In this document: positions 1 through 13,528 of the stretch, piece after piece | Numbering within the stretch: position 1 is the stretch's first letter | Layout of the letters: each line of letters begins with the position of its first letter | Source: a virus | Lineage: Duplodnaviria > Heunggongvirae > Uroviricota > Caudoviricetes | Reading direction: 5' to 3' (one strand) | DNA length: 13,528 bases | IMG/VR virus record: IMGVR_UViG_2778261256_000011 | The notes under the pieces: model-generated | Told to the model about the DNA's origin: nothing | Seen by the model: only the letters and a program-made list of their open reading frames with translations | Database searches by the model: none | Position numbers and translations under genes: made by a program

Positions 1-570
1 TGTCGTTCTCAAAATCGGTGGAGCTGCATGACAAAGTCATCGGGCATTATCTGAACATAAAACACTATCAATAAGTTGGAGTCATTACCCGCATGATTCA
101 GCAGATAAATCCTTGAAAGCAGGTACTCAGCCCTCAGTGAACAGAATAAGTCAGCGTAATGTACTTTAGTGCTGACCACGTGCTCTGTATGATACAGAAT
201 CTATCTACTATAAACGAAAATACAGCACGATCAATGCTCACACTCTATATGGGACGTTCGTACCTGGACATGATTATCTGTGTTCAATGTCCCCGCATGA
301 CCGTCTTAACATCCAGAATATTACGTTTCCAAAAAAACCAGAAATGATAAAAAATGAGCTTAACGTACAATAATTTTCGATATCCAAACTGACCCCGTAA
401 AGGATGTTTCGGCTCTCTTATCGCAGCGTCTGAAACTGGCAGTGCTTGTTTGGCATGTCCGGATAGACCCGAGTGCCACCAGTCAGCCAAAGAGGTTGCG
501 ATTTCGATGTATGGGAAGTTCGTTGGCTTCCCCAATGACAAAATCAAGAAAACCAGAAAGGTAAAAACAC

Positions 571-3500
571 ATGAAGGCTCTGATGGTCAGAACTGACTTC
601 TCCCTGGGAGAGTCGGCTCTAAAAGCAGAAAACGCGGTGAAAATCGCGAGAGACGCTGGCTACACCGCTGTCATTTCCGCCGACAGCATGAATATTGCCA
701 GTGTAATCCCTCTGCAACGTGCCGCTGGCGACGACATGTCGGTAATTTGTGGCGTTAAGCTGAATGTTGTCGACGATCCGACATACGAGCACCGCGCTCG
801 CTTGGCGAAAGAGTCAGGAAGATGTATGGAATCATTAGTTCGTGATCGCAGCTACTGTTTCACGGCACTGATAAAGAATGAACAAGGTTATCGCGACGTG
901 TGCGAACTGATGACCTTAGCGAACAAACGCGAGCAATTCTACTTTGTCCCGCGTCTGGCGCTTGAGCAGCTGGCAGCCGCATATGCCAAAGGCAACATCA
1001 TCCTGCTGACGTCCGACATTGGCAGTGTATTCCAGCGCCGGGACTTCGCAAAAATTATCGGGACGCTGGTCACAGCTGGCGGTCGCGATAACTTCTACAG
1101 CGTGGTTTATCCGCACCCTACCCCATTCTACGACCAGATTAACGTCCGGGCGATGAAAGTGGCGAGCGCACTGAAAATAGAGCCAGTGGCGTTCTATCCC
1201 GCTTATTACGAAGCGATCGACGACGCTGACATTAAAGACATTGCGCACATGGTTACGAACAACATCAAAATCGACCAGCCGCATCGTCTGCGCATCCCCC
1301 ACCAGCGAGATAACGCTGTTAATGGTCGTCGCCATCTCCTTGAAGCGCTGAAAGCCTTCTCCGTTCGCATGGGCGTACCGGTAACAGCTGCAATGGCCTC
1401 AACAACGCAGGACACCATTATTGAAGCCTGCACATGGCGCTGGCATGAACTGCCACCAGCACTGCCCAAGATGGCAGACGACGAGCCTGCAACGCTGATG
1501 AAGCTGGCTGTCGCGGGGCTACGCAAGCGTCTAACTACTAAAGAGTTTGGCTACACACCACAGGCTTCTGAGCACCGAGTGTATGTTGAGCGACTGAAGT
1601 ACGAAATGGACACACTGACCCGTCTGGGCTTCTGTGGCTACTTCCTGATGGTACGCGATCTGATGAATCACAGCCGTGAAACTGGCATTCCTGTCGGGCC
1701 AGGTCGTGGTTCCTCTGCCGGTTCTCTGGTGGCGTGGTGCATAGGCATAACCAACGTCGATCCTATCCGTCACGGTCTTCTGTTTGAGCGTTTCATCAAC
1801 CCTGAACGTCTTGACTTACCGGATGCGGATCTGGACTTCAGCCAGGCACGTCGTCATGAGGTGATCGAGTATCTGAATGAACGCTATGGCGAAGATTACG
1901 TTGCCGGTATTCCAAACTTCACCTATCTGGGCGCCGCTTCTGCGCTGCGAGACACTGCGCGTATTTACGGTGTCGACGCTGCGGATATGGCGGTATCCAA
2001 AGAGTTCAAGAATCTGGAAGACGATAGCCTGTCTCTGGAAGAGCTGCGCGAGCAACTGGCCAGCCTGGACAAATACGCCACGAAAAACCCGGAAGCGTTC
2101 AAAGCGGCGTGTAAGCTACAAAGCCTGATGCGTGGTTTTGGCCGTCATGCAGCGGGGATGATCGTCGCTGGCGTTCCACTGGTAGAGCGCACGCCCGTCG
2201 AGCTGCGTGGCAACGCTCGCTGTATTGCATTCGATAAACGTTACTGCGAGGCAATGGGGCTGATTAAGCTGGACGTTCTCGGTCTGGCAACGCTCGATCT
2301 GCTGGATAGCGCGAAACGCTACATCAAAGAGAGTACCGGGGAAGACATCAATCTCGATGCTATCCCACTGGACGATCGCAAAGTTCTGGATGGGTTCGCT
2401 GCAGGGTACACTCAGGGCGTATTCCAGCTGGAGTCCGGCCCCATGCGCAAGCTGCTTAAAGATCTGGGCGGTGGCATTGAGCCAATGAGCTTCAAAACCG
2501 TTGTCGCCACGACCGCACTCTTCCGACCTGGCCCGATTCAATCAGGCATGTTGGACGACTATGTCTCCGTGGCCAAAGGCTTCATGGCTCCACATTCAAT
2601 TCATCCGCGTCTTGAGGAAGTCACCCGGGAGACTAATGGTGTTTTGCTCTATCAGGAACAAATCATGCAAAGTTCCCGAGTACTTGCCGGGTTCTCTATG
2701 GCCGAAGCAGACGCTCTGCGTTCCGCTATCGGTAAAAAGAACATGGATAAGATGAAAGCGATCGGCAGCGATTTTGTAGAACGAGCACAAGCAGGCTGGG
2801 TGACACTGTCACTCAAAAATGGAGGTACTGTAGAGGTTCACAAACACGCAAAACTGGATTGCTCAGACGGTAAGCGTAGAAGCTACAGCGAGGCTATTAG
2901 TGACGGCATAGACTACGTGGAGATCGTCTCTGAACAAGAAGGTCTCAGTAAGGAAAAAGCCCAAGAAATATGGGACGCCTTTGAGAAGTTCGGTGGATAT
3001 GCCTTCAACAAATCACACAGCGTTGCTTATTCTTTAATCAGCTATCAGTCTATGTGGTTAAAGACACATTACCCTGCTGAGTTCTTCGCTGCTGCGCTCA
3101 CCATTCTGGGCGAGGATAAGCACCAGGGCTTAGTTAAAGATGCGCTGACCTATGGCATTCGCGTATTGCCACCAGACGTTAACGTGTCATCTAACCGAAT
3201 TGAGATCCGCACGCTGGAAGACGGCAGTCAGGTTCTGTATGCACCATTCTCTGCTGTGAAAGGCTGCTCTGAGAATGGTTGCCAGGCCATCATGAGAGCG
3301 CGTGAGAAAGTTGGCGGCAAATTCGAATCACTGGCGCAATTTGAGGAATCTGTCGAGAAGCGAGCATGTAATAGCCGGGTACGCGAGTCGCTGCAAAAAG
3401 TCGGTGCGTTCGCATCGATTGAGCCTGGCTGTCTGCCAGCGACAGATCCGGAACGACTGCGCGACCAGGCAGAGTTGATGGGCAATCTGGTGATCGACGC

Positions 3501-4077
3501 TGTAAAAGCCTCTCGACCGTTCGAGATGAACCCTAAGCGCTCTGCCGAGGTGAATGTACTGATGACTCGCATGGCGGCCGAAATGGGTCTGGGAGACGAC
3601 CTGATCCGCCCAAGCATTGGCATTAAGCCGAAAATCATGGTCATTCTGGACAACGCGAACGGCAATGATGGGCGTACCGGCTACTTCATGGAGAACGGCT
3701 ACGACGACTTTAAGGCGAAGTTGCTTACTGCAGGCGATCTGCGCATGGGCGATCTCTACGTCACAGGCGTGTGCAAAAAGGTGAAGGACAAAGAGAAGGA
3801 CTACACCAAAGACGAGATCGGCCAGTTCACCGACTTTATGCGTGAAGAGATCAATCTGGTGCGTCCGACCTATGTACTGACGTGTGGCAGCCGGGCGACG
3901 TCGCTCTTCAACAACAAGAGCAAACCATCCGACCTGGTTGGACGCAAAGAGTATCTGCCGGAGCTGGATGCGACCGTTTTCTACGGATTTAACCCGAATA
4001 TCCTTTACTTCCGACCGGAAGAAGGAGAGCGACTGGAGGCCATTCTGACTGATATTGCGGAGACGATAAATAAGTAA
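571..4077 (+). CDS. dnaE: DNA polymerase III alpha subunit homologue (DnaE-type, family C replicative polymerase), 1168 aa
   Basis: Translation contains the hallmark DnaE palm/fingers motifs: GYFLMVRDLMNHSRETGIPVGPGRGSSAGSLVAWCIGITNVDPIRHGLLFERFINPERLDLPDADLDF, LFRPGPIQSGMLDDY, VLLYQEQIMQ, and FGGYAFNKSHSVAYSLISYQSMWLKTHYPAEFFAA. Length is close to E. coli DnaE (1160 aa). The N-terminal PHP region (MVRTDFSLGES) lacks the two His of the usual HxH metal motif, so it is a divergent paralogue. AAGG Shine-Dalgarno 9 nt before ATG 571; TAA TAA double stop at 4075-4080. Confidence 0.9.
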   Translation: MKALMVRTDFSLGESALKAENAVKIARDAGYTAVISADSMNIASVIPLQRAAGDDMSVICGVKLNVVDDPTYEHRARLAKESGRCMESLVRDRSYCFTALIKNEQGYRDVCELMTLANKREQFYFVPRLALEQLAAAYAKGNIILLTSDIGSVFQRRDFAKIIGTLVTAGGRDNFYSVVYPHPTPFYDQINVRAMKVASALKIEPVAFYPAYYEAIDDADIKDIAHMVTNNIKIDQPHRLRIPHQRDNAVNGRRHLLEALKAFSVRMGVPVTAAMASTTQDTIIEACTWRWHELPPALPKMADDEPATLMKLAVAGLRKRLTTKEFGYTPQASEHRVYVERLKYEMDTLTRLGFCGYFLMVRDLMNHSRETGIPVGPGRGSSAGSLVAWCIGITNVDPIRHGLLFERFINPERLDLPDADLDFSQARRHEVIEYLNERYGEDYVAGIPNFTYLGAASALRDTARIYGVDAADMAVSKEFKNLEDDSLSLEELREQLASLDKYATKNPEAFKAACKLQSLMRGFGRHAAGMIVAGVPLVERTPVELRGNARCIAFDKRYCEAMGLIKLDVLGLATLDLLDSAKRYIKESTGEDINLDAIPLDDRKVLDGFAAGYTQGVFQLESGPMRKLLKDLGGGIEPMSFKTVVATTALFRPGPIQSGMLDDYVSVAKGFMAPHSIHPRLEEVTRETNGVLLYQEQIMQSSRVLAGFSMAEADALRSAIGKKNMDKMKAIGSDFVERAQAGWVTLSLKNGGTVEVHKHAKLDCSDGKRRSYSEAISDGIDYVEIVSEQEGLSKEKAQEIWDAFEKFGGYAFNKSHSVAYSLISYQSMWLKTHYPAEFFAAALTILGEDKHQGLVKDALTYGIRVLPPDVNVSSNRIEIRTLEDGSQVLYAPFSAVKGCSENGCQAIMRAREKVGGKFESLAQFEESVEKRACNSRVRESLQKVGAFASIEPGCLPATDPERLRDQAELMGNLVIDAVKASRPFEMNPKRSAEVNVLMTRMAAEMGLGDDLIRPSIGIKPKIMVILDNANGNDGRTGYFMENGYDDFKAKLLTAGDLRMGDLYVTGVCKKVKDKEKDYTKDEIGQFTDFMREEINLVRPTYVLTCGSRATSLFNNKSKPSDLVGRKEYLPELDATVFYGFNPNILYFRPEEGERLEAILTDIAETINK

Positions 4078-4082
4078 TAAAG

Positions 4083-4107
4083 AAAAACCCGCCATTTGGC
4101 GGGTTTT
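4083..4107. terminator. Bidirectional rho-independent terminator between convergent genes
   Basis: aaaaaCCCGCCatttGGCGGGtttt: GC-rich 6-bp stem (4088-4093 / 4098-4103), 4-nt loop, T-run on the plus strand and A-run (T-run on minus) on the other side. It sits between the polymerase stop and the stop of the minus-strand gene. Confidence 0.65.
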
Positions 4108-4666
4108 ATGCGCAAATTTTTTCGCAGTCTTGCGAGTGACTGAGTGAGCGAGTAACTCTCTCCACCTCATGAATGTCGCCCAACGATCTTATACGCAGGG
4201 CAAGATTCCACGTACTCAATGTGCGCGCGTTACGCACCAGTTCTTCCCGTGCTTTTTCGTCTTTGCTGTCAAGACGACCGCAGTCGTTCAACCATTTAGC
4301 GACTTCCGCCCAGTCCCAGAGTGGAGACTGACCGCTGATACGCTGAACAGGGCAAGGAAAATCACCTTTGCCACGTAATCCGTCTTTAAGCAGAGTAATA
4401 GCCTGGCGCGTTAAGCCAGAGAGTTGAGCAATATCGCTCAAGCCTACCAGTGCTGAATCTACCGATTCCACCACTGCGCCAATGCCTGCTGTTTCAATAT
4501 CAAGGATTGCCGATTCGATTGCTTCATCTAAAGATTTAGCTTCTCGGTCAAATTCTACATACACTGAGTTTCCGTAGTAGCAAATGAGCGCATCATCGCA
4601 ACCGTGGCTATACAGAGCATCTGCGACTACGCAGTACTGACTACAGGTTATCAGAATTATCCCCAT
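4106..4666 (-). CDS. Hypothetical protein with a central helix-turn-helix-like segment; N-terminal region weakly HicB/UPF0150-like
   Basis: 186-aa ORF starting at ATG (plus 4664-4666), convergent with the polymerase gene. Segment LSDIAQLSGLTRQAITLL looks like an HTH recognition unit; the preceding SLDEAIESAILDIETAG resembles the helix of HicB-type antitoxin domains. No convincing Shine-Dalgarno and no partner toxin ORF nearby, so both the call and the function are tentative. Confidence 0.4.
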   Translation of the reverse strand: MGIILITCSQYCVVADALYSHGCDDALICYYGNSVYVEFDREAKSLDEAIESAILDIETAGIGAVVESVDSALVGLSDIAQLSGLTRQAITLLKDGLRGKGDFPCPVQRISGQSPLWDWAEVAKWLNDCGRLDSKDEKAREELVRNARTLSTWNLALRIRSLGDIHEVERVTRSLSHSQDCEKICA

Positions 4667-4756
4667 TTACATCAGCTTATCTACGTCAGCCCTCAAGTTC
4701 TTCAGCAAGCCAGCTCCACCGCCTGATTCCAACATGATAAAATTGATATGCGAAAA

Positions 4757-4775
4757 TAAGTATATAGATAACATT
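4757..4775 (+). promoter_or_regulatory. Copy 1 of bipartite motif TAAGTA-N6-TA(T/A)CATT (TAAGTAtatagaTAACATT), directly abutting ATG 4776
   Basis: Shares the TAAGTA half-site, the 6-nt spacing and 6/7 of the second half-site with the copies at 5226-5244 and 10003-10021. All three lie upstream of plus-strand genes. Confidence 0.3.
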
Positions 4776-5207
4776 ATGAGCACCGATATCTACGAAAAAA
4801 TCATGTCCGATCTGGAGTTCGACCGCGACAATCTGGAGGAAGTCTGGCGTCAGCAACCGCGTCTGTTGATGGAGTATGGCTCTAAGCTGGCACGGGCAGA
4901 ACGTGAGGTTGCAGATGCAAAACTCTCTCTCGACGCGATCGAGGCAAAAATCTATGACAACGAGCGTAAGAGCTTGAGTATGAATGGAATTAAGTTTAAT
5001 GAATCCGTACTGGAAGCGAAGGTTAGAACCAACCCGCAATACCTCGCAAAGCGCCAGAAACTCGACGATGCTCGACACATTGCAGACCTGTACAAGCACG
5101 CTGTAGCCGCCTTCTCCCACCGCCGCGATATGATTGTCCAGGCGTCGAAGATGGCTATCGTAGAGATAGAGCGTCTGGGGGCCGAACGATTCCATTTACC
5201 CCGTTAA
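4776..5207 (+). CDS. Hypothetical charged, predicted coiled-coil protein (143 aa from ATG 4776; the ORF track's alternative start at 4734 gives 157 aa)
   Basis: Open frame with protein-like composition (ARAEREVADAKLSLDAIEAKIYDNERKSL). The overlapping minus-strand ORF 4686-5195 has Cys-rich, non-protein-like composition. Neither candidate start has a clear Shine-Dalgarno; 4776 was chosen because the conserved motif copy lies immediately upstream of it. Confidence 0.45.
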   Translation: MSTDIYEKIMSDLEFDRDNLEEVWRQQPRLLMEYGSKLARAEREVADAKLSLDAIEAKIYDNERKSLSMNGIKFNESVLEAKVRTNPQYLAKRQKLDDARHIADLYKHAVAAFSHRRDMIVQASKMAIVEIERLGAERFHLPR

Positions 5208-5225
5208 TTTATGCTAGATAGTAAG

Positions 5226-5244
5226 TAAGTACTAATCTATCATT
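5226..5244 (+). promoter_or_regulatory. Copy 2 of bipartite motif TAAGTA-N6-TATCATT (TAAGTActaatcTATCATT), about 80 nt upstream of the ssb start
   Basis: 15/19 positions identical to the copy at 10003-10021 with identical half-site spacing; the core AGTACT is palindromic. Confidence 0.3.
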
Positions 5245-5326
5245 CTTCTCGCTCGAAAGAGCCACGAACAAACGAACGCCCAATGCGCATAGCGCCAATG
5301 GCCACAATCACAACAAGGAGAAATAC

Positions 5327-6343
5327 ATGTCTAAGTCATTACTTGATCTGCTTAACAAGACCCGTGGCGATATTGCTTCCAAACGTGGCAATAACATTGA
5401 TTTGACCCGTCTGAAAGATGGCAATAACTATCTGCGCATTTTTCCGAACAAGGACGATCCGAATGGCGTGTTCTTCCAGACTTTCGGTATGCACTACGTT
5501 AAGCATCAGAATGAGGAAGGCAAAGATGTAACCACCGCCTATATCTGCGAACAACACACCCACGGCCACGCTTGCCAGCTGTGTGAGATGGTTATGGAAG
5601 GTCGCGCTCGCTTTAAGGGCAACAAAGCGATGGAAGAGCGCATTAATAGTATGCGTGCTACGCCGCGTTATCTGGTCAACGGTGTTCTGTCTGCGCGTGA
5701 AGACTTTGCGGACGCAGAGAAATGCCAGCTAATTGAGCTGCCGTCTACGGTCTTCGACGATATCTGCAAAGTGATGTCCGAAGATATTGCGGACGATATT
5801 GGCAACCCACTGAGCAAAGAAGAAGGCTATGCGTTCCTGATTAAACGCACCGGTTCCGGTCGTGACACCAAGTACGACGTATCCCCGAAACGTAAAGTCT
5901 ACAAAGGCGACATTCCTGAGAAGCTCTGGACTACCCAACACGATCTGATCGCATATGCGAACCAGTCTGACGAAACTCGTTTGCTGTCCACGGCTCGCAC
6001 TATGGGTCGTCTGATTGGTATTGCGGCTCCGGCAGCAACTATGCCCTCACCAGCCATTTCTTCCGCTGCAAAATCAGCCGCAGCTGGACTGCCAGGCTTT
6101 GGCTCTATCACTGGACATACGGAAGGCACAGCTGCTGTCGCTACAGCACATACTCCGGCGCCAGAGTCCACCAGCCTGGTTGATGAAGAGATCCTGCGAG
6201 CAGCTGAAGCTGAGTTCAAACCGGAAGAAGCGAAAGCTCCGGAAGCCACCGAAGCCGCAAGTGCTTCAGCATCTGCTGCCGCTGCATCTGTACCAGCTGA
6301 TGAAGGTCTCGATGACCTGCTGGCTGAACTGGACGCTCTGTAA
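5327..6343 (+). CDS. T4 gp32-like single-stranded DNA-binding protein with zinc-binding subdomain, low-complexity linker and acidic C-terminal tail
   Basis: N-terminal pattern LKDGNNYLRIFPNKDDPNGVFF parallels the gp32 LDNAGNGQAVIRFLPSKND region. His/Cys cluster CEQHTHGHACQLC fits the gp32 His-Cys3 zinc site. C-terminal third is Ala/Ser/Pro/Glu-rich and ends in the acidic DDLLAELDAL. Strong AAGGAG Shine-Dalgarno 6 nt before ATG 5327; TAA stop followed by a terminator. Confidence 0.75.
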   Translation: MSKSLLDLLNKTRGDIASKRGNNIDLTRLKDGNNYLRIFPNKDDPNGVFFQTFGMHYVKHQNEEGKDVTTAYICEQHTHGHACQLCEMVMEGRARFKGNKAMEERINSMRATPRYLVNGVLSAREDFADAEKCQLIELPSTVFDDICKVMSEDIADDIGNPLSKEEGYAFLIKRTGSGRDTKYDVSPKRKVYKGDIPEKLWTTQHDLIAYANQSDETRLLSTARTMGRLIGIAAPAATMPSPAISSAAKSAAAGLPGFGSITGHTEGTAAVATAHTPAPESTSLVDEEILRAAEAEFKPEEAKAPEATEAASASASAAAASVPADEGLDDLLAELDAL

Positions 6344-6359
6344 TCCCATAACGTGACCA

Positions 6360-6388
6360 GTAAGGCGTCTGCGGACGCCTTACTTTTT
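6360..6388 (+). terminator. Rho-independent terminator after ssb
   Basis: GTAAGGCGTCtgcgGACGCCTTAC: perfect 10-bp stem with a 4-nt loop, followed by TTTTT (6384-6388). Confidence 0.75.
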
Positions 6389-6403
6389 GGAAGGAGTGTA
6401 CCG

Positions 6404-7348
6404 GTGAATTATCTCTTTGTGGACGGTAACAGCCTGGGCTATTACCACCAGCAATCCGACAAATTACACAACGGCGAGATGGAAGTTCAGGCGGCTTTTG
6501 GCTTCGTGAAGAACGTTCGTCGTTACGCCTCAATTCTCCATGCCCGGCCAATGATCTTGTGGGATGGATTCAGCGACAAACGTCGCGACTTCTACCCGGA
6601 GTACAAAGCGAACCGCGACGACGACCCGGACATGAAGAAGATGAAAGAAGGCTTTGCCATCCAGAAGCCGTACATCTTGAAAATGATGACCGCGCTGGGC
6701 GTTAACCAACTCATTGCAAAGGACGCAGAAGCGGATGACCTGGCTGGAATGCTGGTCTCTCGTCTGGCTCCGCAGCCGACTGTTGACCATATCTATCTGC
6801 TAACGGGCGATGGCGACTGGCTCCAGCTTGTTCGTGAGAACGTGAGCTGGATAAGCCTGCGTGAAGACGCCAAGCACAAGCAGGTGAACTTCGAACAGTT
6901 CGCAGAGCTGACCGGTCTGCCGACCCCACGCGCGTTTCTGGAAGCGAAAGCGTTGCAGGGCGATAACTCGGACAACATCAAAGGCGTAGGTGGCATTGGT
7001 GATGGTGGCGCGAAAGAGCTGCTTCATGAATGGGGAAGCGTGGCCGCAATGGTACGCGGCATTAACGACGGTTCCATTGTCATCAACAAAGGTCGCTATA
7101 AGACGGCATTCAACAAGCTGGCAAAGAACGCCTTCAACGAGAAGACGGGCTGCCGGATGCTCGAAGCCTTTAAGCGCAACATGATGCTGATGAACCTTAT
7201 CGACACAAAATTCCCACCCAGCGAAATCGAGTCGATTAAAGGCGCACGCGATATGAGCGCCTTTGAACAGATGTGTTACGAGCTGAATTTCCGTTCGTTT
7301 CTGGAAGATCTGGAAGTGTTTGTTCTGCCGTTTGAGAGGTATTGCTGA
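6404..7348 (+). CDS. 5'-3' exonuclease / flap endonuclease (DNA Pol I 5'-nuclease / T5 D15 / T4 RNase H family), GTG start
   Basis: Conserved family motifs: LFVDGNSLGYY (N-terminal metal site), EADDLAGMLVS, LLTGDGDWLQL, and the H3TH motif ALQGDNSDNIKGVGGIGDGGAKELL. The GTG at 6404 is 7 nt after GGAAGGAG and lies just downstream of the terminator hairpin; the ATG at 6353 used by the ORF track would put the hairpin inside the coding sequence. TGA stop at 7346-7348 overlaps the next ATG (TGATG). Confidence 0.85.
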   Translation: MNYLFVDGNSLGYYHQQSDKLHNGEMEVQAAFGFVKNVRRYASILHARPMILWDGFSDKRRDFYPEYKANRDDDPDMKKMKEGFAIQKPYILKMMTALGVNQLIAKDAEADDLAGMLVSRLAPQPTVDHIYLLTGDGDWLQLVRENVSWISLREDAKHKQVNFEQFAELTGLPTPRAFLEAKALQGDNSDNIKGVGGIGDGGAKELLHEWGSVAAMVRGINDGSIVINKGRYKTAFNKLAKNAFNEKTGCRMLEAFKRNMMLMNLIDTKFPPSEIESIKGARDMSAFEQMCYELNFRSFLEDLEVFVLPFERYC

Positions 7349-7614
7349 TGCTGAAATCCATCATTAATGGCGGGGCAACTACGCCAACCATGCTGGCAAA
7401 GGAGATTGTTTTCTGCCACGGCGAGCACGCTGTGGTAGCGCTGCCGAACATTCTGGGCGCTGCTGGCATCTCTGCTACTGAGCGTGAGTTCGCGCTGGTC
7501 AGTGAGCAGGTCGTGAAGATCATCGCTCGCGTCGCCAAACACCTGAACCACGACGCAATCAAGTTTGACGAAGCCGCTGCTTCGAAGCGAATCAACGAAT
7601 CAAAAGGAGCCTAA
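7348..7614 (+). CDS. Hypothetical 88-aa protein, translationally coupled between the nuclease gene and recA
   Basis: ATG overlaps the upstream TGA; TAA stop 2 nt before the recA ATG; GAGG about 9 nt upstream. No recognisable motifs. Confidence 0.5.
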   Translation: MLKSIINGGATTPTMLAKEIVFCHGEHAVVALPNILGAAGISATEREFALVSEQVVKIIARVAKHLNHDAIKFDEAAASKRINESKGA

Positions 7615-7616
7615 TC

Positions 7617-9959
7617 ATGGCAAAAGGCAAATCCGCACTGGCACTGGCGCTGAAAAAGAAAATCGGCAGCAATGACGAGATTCAGAAGGTCTCCCACTGG
7701 ATTGACTCCGGTTTCCCTCCACTGAACAAAGCCATTTCCTGACGTTACGACGGTGGTTTTCCGTGTGGGCGTATCGTTGAAGTCTTCGGGCCACCAAGCG
7801 CGGGGAAATGTGTTACCGCAGACACCATGCTGCTGACGGAGCGTGGAATGGTAACAGTGAAAGAACTGTTTGAGATTGAGGGGCACAAAGCAACATGCAC
7901 TACTCGCGATGTAGAGCATAACGTTGGACTCATCAATGAAAATGGCGTGATAGAGAAGACCTCACACCTGACATGGAACAACCGTCGCAAATTCAAGCGC
8001 ATTAAGCTGGCATCAGGGGGTTACATCGAGGCTACGTTCCGTCACCCAATTCGTGTGGTTGACGACTTAGGCAATATCGTCTGGCGGTATGCTGAAAAAA
8101 TCAGTGTAGGCGACACGATTCCTTCAATGGTTGGCACACATCAATTCGGCGATCAGCACTTGGATGCCAATATCGCAAAACTGATGGGCTATTTAATTGC
8201 TGACGGATACGTGGCCTCTGAAAATTCTGTGCATTTTTCTAACACAGATCCATTCATCAAGGATGAGTACTACCGCCTCATTTCGCTGGTATCAGACAAG
8301 ATGCCAGTTACGAGAAAACATAACGGCTCGGAAGACCATGTGCTGTTTAGCAAAGAGGTGCGTTCGCTGCTTTTTAAAGAATATGGTCTGGAGTATGAGA
8401 AAGCTGCTGGCAAGCAGGTTCCGTTGAGTGTGCGTCGCGCCAATAGCGAGGCTCAAATTGCATTCCTTCGCGGCTACTTTGAGCTGGAATGCCACGTCAA
8501 TGATGGTCGCTGCATTGAGGTTGTGAGCGCGAGTGGGTTGCTGCTACAGCAAATTCGCCTCATGCTCCTGAATCTGGGGATTACGTCAACTATCTCTGAA
8601 AAACACGTCGCAGGTTATAAAAACATATATTACCGGCTGTCATTCAGTGGCTCTAACTACGACCTTTTCCTGTCAACGATTGGGTTCGAGTCTCCGGCTC
8701 GTTTAGCAGTGGCAACCAAACGGGACATTAGTTTTGACCGCACTTATTTAGGCTACGTTCCGCACATCAGCGGCTTAGTGAAATCACTCTACGAGTCACT
8801 CACCAAGACCTCTCGTAAAGACTACGTTCTGGTAGATCACGTTATTGGCCGCGGCGATCGTGTCGGAATAGACAAACTGCGAGAAATCTATGTCTCCTTC
8901 ATTGGCAGAAAGAATCGTTTTAACGAGCATCTGTTTGCACAACTGGCAGCGGTAATTGACTCTAACTTGTTCTACGACGAAGTCGTGGCTATTGAGGAAG
9001 GTGAAGCACCAACGTTCGACGTAGCGATGCCGGAAACACACTCTTTCTGGTCTAACGGGATTATCAGCCACAACACATTCCTCGCGACGGCTGCGATGGT
9101 GTCAGCACAAACACAGGATGGTCTGGCCGTATTCCTTGACCACGAAAACAGTTTCGACGTTGGTCTGGCGGTAGCGAACGGACTGAACGCCGACGAAGAC
9201 GACGGTCAGTGGGTCTACAAACAGCCGGATACCTTCGAAGACTCCGTAGAGCTGATCGGCACAATCCTCAAGCTGGTGCGCGACGAAGAGCTTATTCCGG
9301 AAACAGCCCCTATCTGCATCGTAGCCGACTCTCTGGCGTCGATGGTTCCGAACTCGAAGGCTGAGAAGTTCGACAAGATGGCAGAAGGCACTGCGAAGGA
9401 CAAAGATCAGCTGAACATGAACGACAACACGGCGCTGGCGCGCGCGACAAGTGCGAACTTCCCTACTCTGGCGCTTTGGGCGCGTAAGTACAACGCGTGC
9501 ATCATCTTCTTGAACCAGGTGCGTACCAAAATTGGTGTGATGTTTGGCGATCCGACTACGTCTCCGGGTGGCGACTCTCCGAAGTTCTACGCGTCGGTGC
9601 GCATCCGTCTGGGTGCATCCGTCATGAAGGATGGCAAAGAGAAGATCGGACAGGACGTTGGCGCCGAGTGCATTAAAAACAAAGTCGCGCCTCCGTTTGG
9701 CAAATGCTCATGGAAATTCTACTTCGACCCGACTCGCGGGCTGGACGTCGTCGAGTCTCTGGTTGAATACATGCTGGAGGAAGGATACCTGCCCAAGAGC
9801 GCCAGCGGGCGTGTGGAAATTGGCGAGAAGAAATACACCAAATCGCAGATCGTCGAGATGTACCGCGAGAAGCCACTCCCGGAAATCATCGCAGCACTCC
9901 AGGCGATAGACGAACGGCGAGCGAAAGAGTCGTCACCAGCAGAGACAGAAGAAGCGTAA
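7617..9959 (+). CDS. recA: RecA recombinase homologue (bacterial RecA type) interrupted by an intein in the P-loop and by an in-frame TGA in the N-extein; may be a pseudogene or need stop-codon readthrough
   Basis: AAGGAG Shine-Dalgarno 7 nt before ATG 7617. N-extein MAKGKSALALALKKKIGSNDEIQKVSHWIDSGFPPLNKAIS, then TGA (7740-7742), then in the same frame RYDGGFPCGRIVEVFGPPSAGK (Walker A; compare E. coli RecA [21 protein letters not shown]). C-extein TFLATAAMVSAQ ... CIIFLNQVRTKIGVMFGDPTTSPGGDSPKFYASVRIRLGA closely matches RecA [38 protein letters not shown]. No ATG/GTG/TTG lies in frame between the TGA and the P-loop. Spliced product would be about 357 aa. Confidence 0.85.
7809..9074 (+). mobile_element. 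Intein (422 aa) with LAGLIDADG homing endonuclease domain, inserted between the Walker A Lys and the following Thr of RecA
   Basis: Begins with Cys directly after GPPSAGK (CVTADTMLLTE, block A) and ends with SHN followed by a +1 Thr (block G). Block B TxxH is present (ATFRHPIRV). Two LAGLIDADG motifs (LMGYLIADGYV and FLRGYFELECHV). Block F-like VVAIEEGEAPTFDVAMPETHSFWSNGIISHN. Removing the segment restores a contiguous GPPSAGK-TFLATAAM P-loop. Confidence 0.85.
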
Positions 9960-9965
9960 TCACAA

Positions 9966-9987
9966 GACGTCCATTGGACGCCTTTTT
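9966..9987 (+). terminator. Probable rho-independent terminator after recA
   Basis: GACGTCCattGGACGCC: 7-bp stem with one mismatch and a 3-nt loop, followed by TTTTT (9983-9987), 7 nt after the recA TAA. Confidence 0.5.
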
Positions 9988-10002
9988 ATACTTGAAAGTA
10001 TA

Positions 10003-10021
10003 TAAGTACTTACTTATCATT
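10003..10021 (+). promoter_or_regulatory. Copy 3 of bipartite motif TAAGTA-N6-TATCATT (TAAGTActtactTATCATT), 28 nt upstream of ATG 10050
   Basis: Contains the perfect 10-bp palindrome TAAGTACTTA; matches the other two copies in both half-sites and spacing. Confidence 0.3.
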
Positions 10022-10049
10022 TCTACACCCAAACGACAAAAGGAAACAC

Positions 10050-10250
10050 ATGATTAAGGGTTATCTCATGGCTGTTTCAGCAGTGGTATCAGTCTGCTTT
10101 ATTTACGGTTTACTGGTTCCATCGCTTATATCAGCTAAAAGCGATCTGGCCTTCTTTATCGGACTTGCCATCGCTTTAATCTTCCCGGTTGCCTTGTTAA
10201 AAGCTGGCCGCAGGTATATCAACTCACTCAATAAAACTAAGGAGAAGTAA
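10050..10250 (+). CDS. Small (66 aa) predicted two-helix membrane protein
   Basis: Two hydrophobic stretches (AVSAVVSVCFIYGLLVPSLI and LAFFIGLAIALIFPVALL) separated by a short polar turn; basic C-terminus. AGGA 5 nt before the ATG; TAA stop. Confidence 0.5.
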   Translation: MIKGYLMAVSAVVSVCFIYGLLVPSLISAKSDLAFFIGLAIALIFPVALLKAGRRYINSLNKTKEK

Positions 10251-10253
10251 GTA

Positions 10254-10445
10254 ATGAAGAAAGGTTTACTGGCGGTGGCTTTGGCTGCTATTTGCACAAT
10301 GGGTCTGACCGGCTGCGATCGCGTGGAACCGGGATACGTTGGCATTAAGGTAAACAAATTGGGTGAAGACAAAGGTATCGGTGAAGTTGTCGGCGTTGGC
10401 CGTCAGTGGACTGGTCTGAATACCGAGCTGTACACCTCTCTTTAA
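10254..10445 (+). CDS. Small (63 aa) predicted lipoprotein
   Basis: Signal peptide MKKGLLAVALAAICTMGLTG followed by Cys (lipobox LTGC). GGAG 9 nt upstream. Mature part about 43 aa (DRVEPGYVGIKVNKLGEDKGIGEVVGVGRQWTGLNTELYTSL). Confidence 0.5.
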   Translation: MKKGLLAVALAAICTMGLTGCDRVEPGYVGIKVNKLGEDKGIGEVVGVGRQWTGLNTELYTSL

Positions 10446-10468
10446 GTCATCTTAAATGACTCTGAGGT

Positions 10469-10516
10469 GTCTGTTAAACCTGTGGCGATTCAGTCTATTA
10501 AACCTGTAGCGATTCA
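10469..10516. repeat. Two tandem copies of a 24-bp unit (GTCTGTTAAACCTGTGGCGATTCA / GTCTATTAAACCTGTAGCGATTCA; 22/24 identical)
   Basis: Direct reading of the sequence: units at 10469-10492 and 10493-10516 in perfect register. Located in the intergenic region where the sequence appears to shift to lower GC, upstream of hsdM. Confidence 0.8.
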
Positions 10517-10677
10517 CTTTATGGTGTCATAAACTTAAATCTAGCGCCGGGTAGAACAAGTTAATCGAACGATGTAGCGGCCATTTAGGCGTTACAGAAA
10601 GAACAGAATTTTAAATTTATAGTGAAGCCGTTGCAGCAACTTTGTGGGGTGCAACCAACACTGAACAGGAAAAGAAA

Positions 10678-13107
10678 ATGGATCATAGTGTACATAACAA
10701 GCTCATCTCATTTATTTGGAACATTGCCGACGACTGTTTACGTGATGTGTACGTTCGCGGTAAGTACCGCGATGTGATTTTACCTATGGTGGTATTACGA
10801 CGTTTAGATACGTTACTTGAACCCACCAAAGAAGCCGTGCTTGAAGAGGTCAAGTTCCAAAAAGAAGAGATGCAAGCCACGGAGCTTGATGATGAACCAT
10901 TGAAGGCGGCTAGTGGTTATGTTTTTTACAATACATCTAAATGGACCCTGAAATCCCTGTTCAACACCGCAACGAATAACCAACAGATATTACTCGCCAA
11001 CTTTGAAGAGTACCTGCTTGGCTTTAGCGATAATGTTAAAGAAATCATTGAATGCTTTAACCTCAAGTTGCAAATTCGTCACATGGCCTCAAAGCAAGTC
11101 CTTCTTGATGTCGTCGAAAAGTTTGTTTCCCCTTACATCAACTTAACTCATGAAACGGTCGAAGACCCAGATGGCAACAAGATGCCAGCCCTTACTAACC
11201 TGGGTATGGGGTACGTGTTCGAAGAGTTGATCCGTAAGTTCAACGAGGAGAATAACGAAGAAGCCGGTGAGCACTTTACACCTAGGGAAGTGATTGAGCT
11301 GATGACACACTTGGTTTTTGACCCAGTGAAAGAGCAGCTACCATTGACCATGACCGTTTACGACCCTGCGTGTGGTAGCGGTGGTATGCTCACTGAATCT
11401 CAAAACTTCATTGAAGAGAAATACCCGAACGACAGCCGAGATATTTACCTTTACGGCAAAGAGATCAATGACGAGACCTACGCGATTTGTAAATCGGACA
11501 TGATGATCAAAGGTAACAACCCTGAGAACATCAAGGTAGGCTCAACCTTGTCTACCGACGAGTTTGCGGCTTCTCGCTTTGACTTTATGTTGTCTAACCC
11601 GCCATACGGTAAGAGTTGGGCGTCTGAACAGAAGTACATTAAAGACGGCAGTGATGTGATTGACCCGCGTTTTAAGGTTAGCCTGAAAGACTATTGGGGA
11701 AATCTCGAAGTGGTGGATGCCACGCCACGTTCGAGTGATGGCCAGCTGCTTTTCTTAATGGAGATGGTCAACAAGATGAAAGATCCGAGCGTAAGTCCAT
11801 TAGGCAGCCGGATTGCCTCTGTTCATAACGGCTCATCGCTCTTTACCGGTGATGCGGGCAGTGGCGAAAGTAATATTCGTCGCTTCATCATTGAAAACGA
11901 CATGCTAGATGCCATCGTTCAGTTACCTAATAACCTGTTCTATAACACTGGCATTACCACTTACATTTGGGTGTTGAACAACAATAAACCTGAGGCGCGT
12001 AAAGGTAAGGTGCAATTAATTGATGCCAGCTTGCTCTACCGTAAGTTGCGCAAGAACTTAGGTAACAAAAACTGCGAATTTGCGCCTGAGCACATCACGG
12101 AAATTACCGATACTTACCTCGCGTGTAAGGATGTTGAAAGAGCACTGGATGCAAACAATGATCCTGTTGGCATCGCCAGTAAGGTATTCAGCAATGACGA
12201 TTTTGGCTACTACAAAGTCACTATAGAGCGCCCAGATCGCCGCAAAGCCAAGTTTACTCAAGACGCAATAGCCCCACTGCGTTTTGATAAGCAACTTAGT
12301 GAAGTGATGGAGTACGTGTACGCAGAGCACGGCGAACGTGTTTACGAAAAAACTGGCTACGGGTCAGCTCAGAAAAAGAGCTTCTTAAAATCCATCGAGA
12401 AAGACATTCTTTCTTGGTGTGAAGATAACGACATCAGTCTCAATGCTAAGGCTAAGGCCAAACTGCTTGATGTGAAACACTGGCTGGCGCTAAAAGCATT
12501 GCTTGAAACTGCACAAACGCTGATGGCTGACATCGGTAGCATTGAATTTGATGACTTCAATAGCTTTAAAACCCAAGTTGATAAATCGCTAAAAGCCCAT
12601 GCTATTAAGCTTTCAGCACCTGAGAAAAATGCCATTCTTCACGCGGTGAGCTGGTATGACGAAACCGCCAAGAAAGTGGTTAAAAAGGTAGTTAAATTAA
12701 CGGGTGATAAATTAAACGACCTGCTGGAGCGCTATGAGTGTGAAGTCGCTGACTTGCCAGATTTTGGTTATTACCCCGTTCCTTCAGCAGAAGGCGGTAA
12801 AAAAGGCGAGTATATCACTTACGAGACCAATTCAGACCTGCGAGATACAGAATCTGTTCCATTAAAGCAAAGCATTTACCAGTACTTCCTAGATGAAGTG
12901 AAGCCTCATGTCGATGAAGCATGGATAAACCTAGATACGGTAAAAATTGGCTATGAAATCAGCTTCAATAAGTATTTCTACCGTCATAAACCGCTGCGTA
13001 GTTTAGAAGAGGTCGCAACCGACATCATCAACCTAGAACAAAAAGCCGAAGGTCTCATTGCGCAGATATTGGGTGTTAAAGTGGCGGAAGCTCAGGGAGA
13101 AGCGTAA
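10678..13107 (+). CDS. hsdM: Type I restriction-modification system methyltransferase subunit HsdM (long form, about 809 aa, with C-terminal extension)
   Basis: N-terminal HsdM domain (ISFIWNIADDCLRDVYVRGKYRDVILPMVVLRRLD), AdoMet motif I VYDPACGSGGML, and N6-adenine catalytic motif IV LSNPPYG. Start moved to ATG 10678 (AGGA 7 nt upstream) rather than the upstream alternative-codon start at 10642. TAA stop overlaps the next ATG (TAATG). Confidence 0.85.
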   Translation: MDHSVHNKLISFIWNIADDCLRDVYVRGKYRDVILPMVVLRRLDTLLEPTKEAVLEEVKFQKEEMQATELDDEPLKAASGYVFYNTSKWTLKSLFNTATNNQQILLANFEEYLLGFSDNVKEIIECFNLKLQIRHMASKQVLLDVVEKFVSPYINLTHETVEDPDGNKMPALTNLGMGYVFEELIRKFNEENNEEAGEHFTPREVIELMTHLVFDPVKEQLPLTMTVYDPACGSGGMLTESQNFIEEKYPNDSRDIYLYGKEINDETYAICKSDMMIKGNNPENIKVGSTLSTDEFAASRFDFMLSNPPYGKSWASEQKYIKDGSDVIDPRFKVSLKDYWGNLEVVDATPRSSDGQLLFLMEMVNKMKDPSVSPLGSRIASVHNGSSLFTGDAGSGESNIRRFIIENDMLDAIVQLPNNLFYNTGITTYIWVLNNNKPEARKGKVQLIDASLLYRKLRKNLGNKNCEFAPEHITEITDTYLACKDVERALDANNDPVGIASKVFSNDDFGYYKVTIERPDRRKAKFTQDAIAPLRFDKQLSEVMEYVYAEHGERVYEKTGYGSAQKKSFLKSIEKDILSWCEDNDISLNAKAKAKLLDVKHWLALKALLETAQTLMADIGSIEFDDFNSFKTQVDKSLKAHAIKLSAPEKNAILHAVSWYDETAKKVVKKVVKLTGDKLNDLLERYECEVADLPDFGYYPVPSAEGGKKGEYITYETNSDLRDTESVPLKQSIYQYFLDEVKPHVDEAWINLDTVKIGYEISFNKYFYRHKPLRSLEEVATDIINLEQKAEGLIAQILGVKVAEAQGEA

Positions 13108-13528
13108 TGGAGCGTTTAGCATTGATGCCGAAATATGAGGATTATGTAGATTCTGGAGTTGAATGGTTAGGGGATTTACCGAGCCATTGGGACGCAGTAA
13201 AAATGAAGTTTCTTTTCAAAGATACGTCGATGAAAAACAAGCCTAACGAAACTTTATTATCTGTTACACAAAGTCAAGGTGTTGTTCCCAGAGAGTGGGT
13301 AGAAAACAGAATGGTTATGCCATCTGGCAATCTAGAAAGCTTCAAGTTCATTGCAAAAGGTGACTTTGCTATAAGCCTTCGTTCCTTTGAAGGTGGTTTG
13401 GAGTATTGTCATCATGATGGAATCATAAGCCCTGCTTATACGGTGTTAAAAACTAAGAAAGATTATCTACTTGCAGGATATTACAAATATTTGTTTAAAA
13501 GTCAGACTTTTATTTCAGAGTTACAAAC
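13107..13528 (+). CDS. hsdS: Type I restriction-modification specificity subunit HsdS, 5' portion only (runs off the window end)
   Basis: Translationally coupled to hsdM. Translation MERLALMPKYEDYVDSGVEWLGDLPSHWDAVKMKFLFK ... KGDFAISLRSFEGGLEYCHHDGIISPAYTVLKTKKDYLLAGYYKYLFKSQTF fits the HsdS target-recognition-domain pattern. It is absent from the ORF track because no stop is reached before the window ends. Confidence 0.75.
   Translation, partial: MERLALMPKYEDYVDSGVEWLGDLPSHWDAVKMKFLFKDTSMKNKPNETLLSVTQSQGVVPREWVENRMVMPSGNLESFKFIAKGDFAISLRSFEGGLEYCHHDGIISPAYTVLKTKKDYLLAGYYKYLFKSQTFISELQ

Follow-up and report, generated by a model that had tools for sequence, protein, structure and literature searches.

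The window, by which we mean the whole 13,528-nt stretch of DNA that was analysed, carries a phage-type replication and recombination module, a short insertion sequence (IS) remnant and the beginning of an operon for a Type I restriction-modification (R-M) system (Table 1). A preliminary description, made from the letters of the window, had placed long hsdM and coupled hsdS genes beside gp32-like, RecA and DnaE genes, and proposed that the R-M genes are defence cargo on a phage or mobile element. The three neighbours are indeed present upstream of the R-M genes and on the same strand, and the cargo proposal is borne out by the features described below.

Table 1. Features of the window (positions in nucleotides; aa, residues of HsdM)
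Feature	Position	Strand	Basis or remark
SSU5-type replication/recombination module (context, not R-M)	571-9959	+	Pfam, NCBIfam, SSU5 identity
dnaE	571-4077	+	Pfam/NCBIfam
Regulator gene within the SSU5-type module		-	
gp32-like SSB gene	5327-6343	+	Pfam/NCBIfam
5'-3' exonuclease gene	6353-7348	+	Pfam/NCBIfam
recA, intein-containing	7617-9959	+	Pfam/NCBIfam
SSU5_062-like lipoprotein gene, 5' stump	10254-10437	+	SSU5 backbone ends at 10437
IS3-family remnant: terminal ~58 nt (inverted repeat and leader) and second partial inverted repeat	10436-10516		
Cassette left end: last ~50 nt of WYL/BrxR gene (10515-10564) and 113-nt hsdM leader	10515-10677	+	
hsdM, long-form Type I methyltransferase subunit	10678-13107	+	ORF, translation, Pfam, PADLOC
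HsdM_N domain, aa 10-149	10705-11124	+	Pfam PF12161, E 6.6e-23
Gamma-class N6-adenine methyltransferase domain (N6_Mtase), aa 177-487	11206-12138	+	Pfam PF02384, E 5.5e-60
Family-specific C-terminal module, aa 488-775	12139-13002	+	
C-terminal amphipathic helix (aa 776-798) and tail	13003-13104	+	Predicted helix
hsdS 5' end, 140 codons (N-terminal conserved stretch and start of TRD1)	13107-13528	+	Cut by window end

An IS-bounded cassette on an SSU5-type backbone

Over positions 396-10437 the window is 94.5% identical to phage SSU5, and it is 99.5% identical throughout to plasmid NZ_CP110979.1, in which a repA gene lies downstream. Plasmids of approximately 96-189 kb, several of them 107-116 kb, match it at 97-99.5% identity with the genes in the same order. 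Judging from its replication module, the carrier is an SSU5-like phage-plasmid of E. coli, whose virion genes lie outside the window. The preliminary description had allowed that the surroundings might turn out to be ordinary chromosomal DNA, and this carrier speaks against that reading. The recA gene of the window contains a nonsense codon, which may mean that damage is building up in this copy of the element.

Similarity to SSU5 breaks at 10437 and resumes beyond the R-M genes inside SSU5_064, with an 8.2-kb cassette taking the place of three SSU5 backbone genes downstream of recA. The GC content of the cassette is 0.41-0.46 compared with 0.50-0.55 for the backbone, and remnants of IS3-family elements lie on both sides. 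Given the low GC content, the break in similarity to SSU5 and the IS remnants, the R-M DNA is a foreign insertion. The left remnant forms a tandem 24-nt direct repeat (10469-10516) and matches the end adjoining ‘ISEhe3 orfA’ in phage SfIV, as well as 1290 plasmid records. The identical IS-cassette junction is found in E. coli chromosomal copies.

Immediately inside this junction, at 10515, begins the similarity to cassettes from Proteus, Providencia, Vibrio and Actinobacillus. This position corresponds to position 9838 of a related cassette locus and falls inside the brxR gene of that locus (8964-9887). We considered whether hsdM retains a promoter of its own after the loss of brxR, but a simple scan of 10515-10677, which is weak evidence, revealed no sigma-70-like promoter. 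Expression of hsdM may therefore depend on read-through from backbone genes.

R-M systems have been reported previously on SSU5-group phage-plasmids of E. coli and Shigella. The present cassette was found in approximately 20-29 of about 740-770 SSU5-type plasmids in PLSDB, and in at least 20 PLSDB plasmids backbone and cassette are arranged as here over at least 80% of the window. None of the deposited SSU5-like phage genomes carries it.

The cassettes of Vibrio alginolyticus, Actinobacillus pleuropneumoniae, Proteus and Providencia have the same genes in the same order (hsdM, hsdS, a DUF4268 gene and hsdR). Their DNA is 93.4-98.6% identical to ours over hsdM and 96-99% identical over the DUF4268 gene and hsdR, and their HsdM proteins are 94-99% identical to the one described here. 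However, they are headed by brxR (WYL/BrxR), which is deleted in our cassette save for its end, and in our case IS3-family ends abut the cassette and the carrier is an SSU5-like phage-plasmid rather than an integrative and conjugative element (ICE). In the Vibrio and Actinobacillus copies, genes for an integrase, AlpA, MobI, IMS/Peptidase_S24 (rumBA-like) and RNase_T precede brxR and the cassette. As judged by its int-xis-mobI-rumBA side, this arrangement resembles hotspot 5 of SXT/R391-type ICEs. It agrees with the published organisation of SXT hotspot 5, in which a WYL gene comes first among the defence genes. The Proteus copies sit in another island. The closest relatives adjoin CBASS-type genes (SAVED, SMODS), other defence-associated genes and BrxR.

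The long HsdM subunit and the remainder of the operon

The hsdM reading frame extends from the ATG at 10678 to a TAA at 13105-13107 and encodes 809 amino acids. An exact-sequence look-up in RefSeq returned WP_032187687.1, whose start agrees exactly. The predicted protein combines HsdM_N and gamma-class N6 methyltransferase domains with motif I (DPACGSGG, residues 229-236, nucleotides 11362-11385) and motif IV (NPPY, residues 307-310, nucleotides 11596-11607), as expected of a Type I HsdM, and both motifs are invariant across two family alignments. By sequence and by fold, the methyltransferase domain matches the solved HsdM chains 7vru, 3khk, 3lkd and EcoR124.

Solved HsdM chains are 445-544 residues long, and our protein is approximately 280 residues longer than the HsdM of EcoKI. 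The preliminary description had put the extension after the catalytic domain and proposed a domain search of this part. The placement is correct, as no Pfam match was found in the approximately 320 residues beyond residue 487. Residues 488-775 are nevertheless predicted to form a confident fold (pLDDT 90), consisting of a beta-hairpin (500-524), a helical bundle (528-656) and an alpha/beta part (658-759), although this module matched no Pfam family and no structure in the PDB. Conservation of the module is 0.60-0.73, compared with 0.86 in the catalytic core, and its net charge is about -4. A role in DNA binding is unsupported in view of this charge. Rather, given the lower conservation and the fact that it is not basic, the module fits a structural or subunit-contact role. 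The helix that follows carries hydrophobic residues spaced 3-4 apart (V779, I783, L786, A790, L793 and I797), and it is a putative HsdS-binding helix, as C-terminal helices in solved HsdM structures suggest by analogy.

Long HsdM proteins of this type are common. The PADLOC model MTase_I PDLC03029 matches residues 2-798 (E 2e-268), and the window protein thus belongs over its full length, the C-terminal module included, to a family of approximately 800-residue proteins found in at least 594 species of several phyla. Members from Pseudomonas and Bacteroidota (780-800 residues) are about 70% identical to it. Close homologues occur in lengths of 804, 809, 814, 819, 824 and 829 residues, which raised the possibility of a variable 5-residue tandem repeat. 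However, the alignment instead revealed five independent 5-residue indels in different places.

All 80 species loci that we surveyed have an HsdM of about 800 residues followed by hsdS. Among these, 73 also carry hsdR (approximately 1005 residues) in the order M-S-R, and the remaining seven, for the most part short contigs, did not yield both hsdM and hsdR. A length of 809 residues is the normal architecture of a widespread and already catalogued Type I family, and because the long form is standard there, the length of HsdM alone is unremarkable.

The hsdM stop codon and the hsdS start codon overlap by one base (TAATG, 13105-13109), and the sequence AGGGAG lies 7-12 nt upstream of the hsdS ATG. 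The translational coupling noted in the preliminary description is therefore plausible, the geometry being that of EcoKI. The start of hsdS is 100% identical to genes annotated as ‘restriction endonuclease subunit S’ in 10 E. coli genomes. In NZ_CP110979.1 the HsdS protein has 440 residues and full-length matches to Methylase_S and to PADLOC Specificity_I. The HsdS assignment of the 140 codons in the window rests on such relatives, in which two variable target-recognition domain (TRD) segments flank a conserved centre. Similarity to other cassettes ends at approximately 13111-13186, where TRD1 begins, and between cassette copies only the two TRD segments of hsdS differ. Thus, the recognition specificity is likely to differ from that of the related cassettes.

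No hsdR lies within the 13,528-nt window. The suggestion that this gene might be located downstream agrees with NZ_CP110979.1, whose operon consists of hsdM, hsdS, a DUF4268 gene and hsdR, and encodes an HsdM identical to that of the window. Its HsdS, DUF4268 protein (PD-(D/E)XK-like, PADLOC candidate PDC-S11) and HsdR have matches in Pfam and PADLOC, and with all four genes present the system is complete in that plasmid. An intact HsdR of 1005 residues is encoded there and in all related cassettes examined. Given that the window ends at codon 140 of hsdS, intact hsdS and hsdR genes in the present molecule are presumed from these relatives.

Function and origin of the cassette

On the basis of sequence comparisons, the region is very probably the 5' half of a conventional Type I R-M operon (hsdM, hsdS, DUF4268 gene, hsdR) carried as cargo on an SSU5-like phage-plasmid of E. 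coli. As established for other Type I systems, two HsdM subunits and one HsdS subunit would assemble into a methyltransferase placing N6-methyladenine marks on a bipartite target, and the addition of two HsdR subunits would create an ATP-driven translocase-nuclease that cuts unmodified incoming DNA. By this action the plasmid-prophage could shield both itself and its host from other phages and plasmids. The TAATG overlap would couple the translation of HsdM and HsdS. The 8.2-kb cassette appears to stem from a pool of cassettes of 93-99% identity, which as a rule are headed by a WYL/BrxR gene. In the E. coli lineage, brxR was removed by an IS3-family element. The IS-bounded cassette is present in E. 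coli chromosomes and, in this phage-plasmid lineage, occupies the place of the three backbone genes.

Several other explanations deserve consideration. The preliminary description had allowed that the long HsdM might be standard for its family, with hsdR absent and the system decayed. The part concerning length holds, whereas the part concerning absence and decay probably does not. Still, the copy in this particular molecule might be an orphan remnant, either a methylase only or non-functional, that lacks working restriction. Such a remnant would be consistent with the position of hsdR outside the window, with the loss of brxR and any promoter associated with it, with the premature stop in recA and with the truncated cassette copies, including truncated hsdM genes, in a few E. 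coli records. However, hsdM is intact and encodes the same protein as a plasmid with the complete four-gene operon, the start of hsdS is identical to 10 annotated full-length genes, and the arrangement recurs among the PLSDB plasmids noted above. We therefore judge decay to be very unlikely. A main selected role other than defence against phages is likewise improbable. Candidates would be post-segregational stabilisation of the plasmid-prophage, or N6-methyladenine acting as an epigenetic regulator of genes in the host or the phage. R-M modules can act as addiction modules, and a low-copy plasmid-prophage would benefit from being stabilised. Also, Type I methyltransferases, P. aeruginosa HsdMSR among them, are reported to affect gene expression. 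The addiction argument is weakened by restriction alleviation, through which classical Type I systems are known not to kill when they are lost or gained. Moreover, the closest relatives reside in defence hotspots beside CBASS-type genes and BrxR, and neither stabilisation nor regulation excludes defence.

A different proposal is that the approximately 290-residue module gives HsdM a function beyond the classical one, for example as a docking or signalling platform for embedded accessory defence genes such as DUF4268/PDC-S11. The model for this idea is PrrC, which EcoprrI keeps under control. In favour of the proposal, the module has a confidently predicted fold and is conserved between phyla without matching Pfam or a solved structure, and published work recognises genes embedded in Type I loci as a source of defence systems. 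In addition, the distance between hsdM and hsdR exceeds the span expected for hsdS only (<1.5 kb) in 52 of the 73 operons with both genes, and the extra genes vary (DUF4268, Schlafen/AlbA_2-HATPase, DUF1016/YhcG and GmrSD). The platform role is nevertheless unlikely in our judgement, because these embedded genes are unrelated to one another and because the lower conservation and non-basic character of the module suit a structural or subunit-contact role. The other 21 of the 73 operons consist of M-S-R only and have the long HsdM as well, which shows the module to be independent of embedded genes. On the same grounds we discarded a docking site that would be specific to the DUF4268 protein, since these 21 operons carry no embedded gene and others carry unrelated ones. 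In its strongest form, in which an undescribed fold makes this family the preferred chassis for embedded immune genes by tethering or sensing them or by tying them to the status of the restriction complex, the proposal is quite improbable. If true, the phage-plasmid would carry a two-layer system composed of R-M and a DUF4268/PDC-S11 effector rather than plain R-M. The DUF4268 literature and a NAR 2025 paper on Type I gene orders yielded nothing specific.

With the conventional R-M operon as the preferred explanation, the annotation is settled as a complete-type Type I R-M cassette on an SSU5-group phage-plasmid. This is an already known kind of system, and the exact HsdM protein is already in RefSeq. 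The locus does show how defence cargo moves, as the cassette is found in ICE-like contexts (Vibrio and Actinobacillus), Proteus islands, E. coli chromosomes and a plasmid-prophage, and IS elements mark the joints. It has a modest bearing on which E. coli lineages resist phages, therapeutic ones included, and on the competition of phage-plasmids with other mobile elements. For anyone determining the structure of a Type I complex from this family, the conserved HsdM module, which lacks a solved structure, would make a reasonable target.

Comparison with known R-M systems

The gene order M-S-R is common to the operon described here and the Type IC systems EcoR124I and EcoprrI. In EcoprrI, prrC is embedded between hsdS and hsdR, and the present operon likewise has an unrelated gene in this place, although it encodes a DUF4268/PD-(D/E)XK-like protein and not an anticodon nuclease. 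The N-terminal and catalytic domains of EcoR124 HsdM superpose on those of our protein. However, EcoR124 HsdM has 520 residues, lacks the 290-residue module and is only about 19-21% identical in the fold alignment (phmmer 79.8 bits against the EcoR124II M chain, catalytic core only), which places our HsdM outside Type IC, where high identity to EcoR124I is expected.

EcoKI, a Type IA system, has the gene order R-M-S. It shares with the present system an NPPY gamma-class methyltransferase, but its HsdM (529 residues) has only weak similarity to ours (E 2e-9, catalytic core only), and in view of this and of the order M-S-(x)-R we do not assign the cassette to Type IA. The one-base overlap of the hsdM stop and hsdS start codons, with translational coupling, is described for EcoKI (PMC3510504).

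The HsdMSR system of P. aeruginosa PAO1 (PA2735, PA2734 and PA2732) is an active Type I system with the target GATC(N)6GTC, and its locus tags leave room for one gene between hsdS and hsdR. We considered PA2735 as a characterised long-form member, but this is unsupported because the PAO1 papers give no protein length. Strains of P. aeruginosa do have HsdM proteins of 796-799 residues that are 69-72% identical to ours, in M-S-[embedded]-R operons where the embedded gene is of the Schlafen/AlbA_2-HATPase type rather than DUF4268.

Among phage-plasmids, P1 carries the Type III R-M system EcoP1I. Like EcoP1I and the R-M and PrrC systems on SSU5-group elements, the cassette described here is accessory cargo on a plasmid-prophage; it differs from them in being a Type I system of the long-HsdM family that is inserted downstream of recA in the SSU5 replication module.

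The hsdM-hsdS pair and the rest of the operon

The preliminary description assigned an HsdM of about 809 aa to the window, with its extra length placed after the catalytic domain, and proposed that hsdS is coupled to it through a TAATG overlap. We judge this description to be right in all particulars because the ORF, the domain assignments, the TAATG and the lengths of solved chains agree with it. Residues 10-149 of HsdM correspond to HsdM_N and residues 177-487 to N6_Mtase (Pfam), and both motif I (DPACGSGG, 229-236) and motif IV (NPPY, 307-310) are invariant across all alignments. A domain search of the C-terminal part, also suggested there, yielded no Pfam domain for residues 488-809, even at E = 1. 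Solved HsdM chains measure 445-544 aa (EcoKI HsdM, 529 aa), and their alignments stop near residue 480-488, leaving a remainder of 50-100 residues in those chains versus 322 here. The hsdM stop codon overlaps the next ATG, an AGGGAG lies upstream, and the frame that follows is open for 140 codons, up to the window end.

Plasmid NZ_CP110979.1 encodes an HsdM identical to that of the window (WP_032187687.1), which is already present in RefSeq with the annotation of a Type I M subunit. The 387-aa protein of this plasmid, listed by PADLOC as the candidate PDC-S11, combines a weak PD-(D/E)XK/NucS_C-like N-terminus with a DUF4268 C-terminus. The expectation that hsdR might lie downstream of the window is matched in this plasmid, where the gene is found approximately 4.1 kb past the hsdM stop codon. 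Given that the window stops within hsdS, we can only infer that hsdR would occupy the same place in the window's own molecule.

Coordinates of the operon, its insertion joints and the predicted parts of HsdM (L001, the matching locus in NZ_CP110979.1)
Feature	Location	Strand	Description
hsdM	ATG 10678 to TAA 13105-13107	+	ORF, 809 aa
hsdS	L001, after hsdM		440 aa
DUF4268 gene	L001 26044-27207, outside window, between hsdS and hsdR		387 aa
hsdR	L001, after DUF4268 gene		1005 aa; HSDR_N, ResIII/SWI2-SNF2, T1R_D3
Left joint	10436-10493		IS3-family terminal ~58 nt
Left joint	10497-10517		Second partial copy of same inverted repeat
Right joint	L001		Final 615 bp of IS911-type orfB and its inverted repeat
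Predicted beta-hairpin	HsdM 500-524
Predicted helical bundle	HsdM 528-656
Predicted alpha/beta part	HsdM 658-759
Predicted long amphipathic helix	HsdM 776-798		Hydrophobic residues at 3-4 spacing

Carrier, joints and relatives of the cassette

Over bases 396-10437 the window shows 94.5% identity to Salmonella phage SSU5 and 82-86% to other SSU5-like phages, and over bases 396-13528 it shows 97-99.5% identity to plasmids of E. coli, Shigella and Enterobacter that range from approximately 96 to 189 kb, several of them being 107-116 kb. The genes follow the order of the SSU5 replication/recombination module (dnaE, a minus-strand regulator, a gp32-like SSB, a 5'-3' exonuclease and recA). On the basis of these identities, plasmid matches and gene order, the window is part of an SSU5-group phage-plasmid. 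The backbone segment occurs in about 740-770 PLSDB plasmids and the cassette in about 20-29; the cassette is absent from all deposited SSU5-like phage genomes.

Several other features of the backbone were observed. Bases 1-90 are an IS1 end, joined to the phage-plasmid backbone a short way upstream of dnaE, and bases 91-395 are not common to the window and its best-matching plasmid, NZ_CP110979.1, nor to SSU5. The C-terminus of DnaE (aa 1048-1164; 3712-4062) matches family-4 uracil-DNA glycosylase (TIGR00758) only weakly, below the cut-off (E 7e-7), and may represent a fused or degenerate UDG-like domain. The recA gene (7617-9959) carries an intein of approximately 1.27 kb with a LAGLIDADG homing endonuclease, and this intein is missing from phage SSU5. 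Because its N-extein contains an in-frame TGA at codon 42 (7740-7742), which is GGA in the 99.5%-identical plasmid, either the window's recA is a pseudogene or the TGA is a sequencing error.

The proposal that the system is defence cargo carried by a phage or mobile element is supported by a low-GC insertion with IS remnants at its joints. GC content drops from 0.50-0.55 to 0.41-0.46 across the last 3.5 kb of the window. SSU5 homology ends at 10437, within the lipoprotein gene SSU5_062, and in NZ_CP110979.1 it returns 8.9 kb on, at the 3' end of SSU5_064, so that the cassette stands in place of 1.47 kb of backbone. At the left joint, two IS3-family terminal inverted repeats in the same orientation form a tandem 24-nt direct repeat, GTCTGTTAAACCTGTGGCGATTCA followed by GTCTATTAAACCTGTAGCGATTCA (10436-10516). 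The IS3-family terminus adjoins ‘ISEhe3 orfA’ in phage SfIV, and 55-64 nt of this terminus also occur in 1290 PLSDB plasmid records and several phages. The cassette is thus an insertion. E. coli chromosomal copies share this left junction, there interrupted by an IS911-like element carrying a group II intron. In two such loci (L008 and L009, ~8400-12000, upstream of the cassette), the intron (ltrA) splits this IS3-family element, which shows repeated mobile-element nesting at the junction.

From 10515 onwards, related loci in Providencia, Proteus mirabilis, Vibrio alginolyticus, V. thalassae and Actinobacillus pleuropneumoniae match the window DNA with 93.4-98.6% identity. Homology starts at the same base in all relatives except A. 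pleuropneumoniae, where it starts two bases later (10517). The E. coli lineage has lost brxR, since this homology begins 50 nt before the stop codon of the WYL/BrxR regulator gene located ahead of hsdM in the relatives. Variation between copies is confined to the two parts of hsdS that encode the TRDs, with the central conserved region retained. Among 5426 complete E. coli genomes, hsdM is found in 62 (40 chromosomal, 22 plasmid), and ten complete genomes carry the window's TRD1 allele.

In V. alginolyticus and A. pleuropneumoniae, one side of the cassette holds integrase, AlpA, MobI, rumBA-like and RNase_T genes, and the other holds genes for SAVED and SMODS/DncV-like CBASS-type domains (L094 20303-22430 and L096 20306-22445, respectively). 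This context looks like the 5' part of SXT/R391 ICEs, in whose published layout a WYL gene always comes first in hotspot 5, a site of defence systems such as the Type I system of ICEVchInd6. The Proteus cassette resides in another island, with antirestriction, RadC, DUF932, AlpA and DUF3987 genes. CBASS-type SAVED and SMODS/DncV-like genes were also observed directly downstream of a related cassette in P. aeruginosa (L012 16813-18391). Given these neighbours, the cassette belongs to larger defence islands in all three species, unlike that on the phage-plasmid.

The long HsdM and its C-terminal module

Although the unusual length of HsdM is real, it does not distinguish this system and is instead the standard for its family. 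The PADLOC model PDLC03029, a full-length Type I methyltransferase model, covers residues 2-798 (E 2e-268). Enterobacterales, Vibrionaceae, Shewanella and Pasteurellaceae encode homologues of 780-830 aa with 89-99% identity, and proteins of 796-799 aa in Pseudomonas and 780-790 aa in Bacteroidota are ~70% identical. The module alone (residues 488-760) retrieves 750 clusters at 50% identity, and its patterns match at least 594 species-representative genomes, with Alpha-, Gamma- and Zetaproteobacteria, Bacteroidota, Spirochaetota, Chloroflexota, Nitrospinota and others among the matches listed. In the best 80 loci, an HsdM match of ~800 residues is followed by hsdS on the same strand. An HsdR of ~1005 aa, 65-98% identical to that of E. 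coli, is present in 73 of them; the remaining seven, which are mostly short contigs, did not yield hsdM and hsdR together.

Conservation across phyla is unusually high in these loci: members from Bacteroidota or Spirochaetota share ~70% identity in HsdM and 65-70% in HsdR with those of E. coli, which points to strong constraint combined with frequent horizontal transfer. Close homologues (>89% identical) are set apart by five distinct indels, each exactly five residues long (at ~252, 559, 729 and 798, and at 701-705 in Klebsiella-type proteins), and HsdM lengths of 804-829 aa therefore change in steps of five.

The 73 operons holding both hsdM and hsdR vary in what they embed: 21 are plain M-S-R, 11 contain a full DUF4268 gene and 41 contain additional DNA of another kind, up to 7.3 kb long. 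In 15 of the 73, a gene could also fit between hsdM and hsdS. In P. aeruginosa, for example, a Schlafen/AlbA_2-HATPase is embedded, and a Cytophaga-like locus has DUF1016/YhcG together with two GmrSD-type genes. The long HsdM is found in operons with and without embedded genes, so the module is not tied to a particular one.

AlphaFold2 modelling from an 86-sequence alignment gave HsdM an overall pLDDT of 81.8, with 90.1 over residues 488-809. Conservation in the module is lower than in the catalytic core, its charge is acidic to neutral, and sub-segment 676-705 is missing from some members of the family with lengths of 725-735 aa. The module has no solved structural counterpart, and we consider it a candidate lineage-specific peripheral domain. 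The terminal helix might bind HsdS, by analogy with the C-terminal helices of classical HsdM proteins.

Relation to known systems

Overall, the system appears to be an ordinary Type I R-M cassette delivered by IS elements as cargo on a phage-plasmid, and the conserved module is its one remaining point of interest. A survey has reported R-M systems on SSU5-group phage-plasmids from E. coli and Shigella. Published work indicates that Type I loci often contain embedded defence candidates, and the operons examined here fit this. The placement of the DUF4268/PDC-S11 gene between hsdS and hsdR resembles that of prrC, which is embedded in the Type I operon of EcoprrI. Judged by identity, the system falls outside both the IA and IC families, and the active system of P. 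aeruginosa PAO1 (PA2735, PA2734, PA2732) may be a characterised relative.
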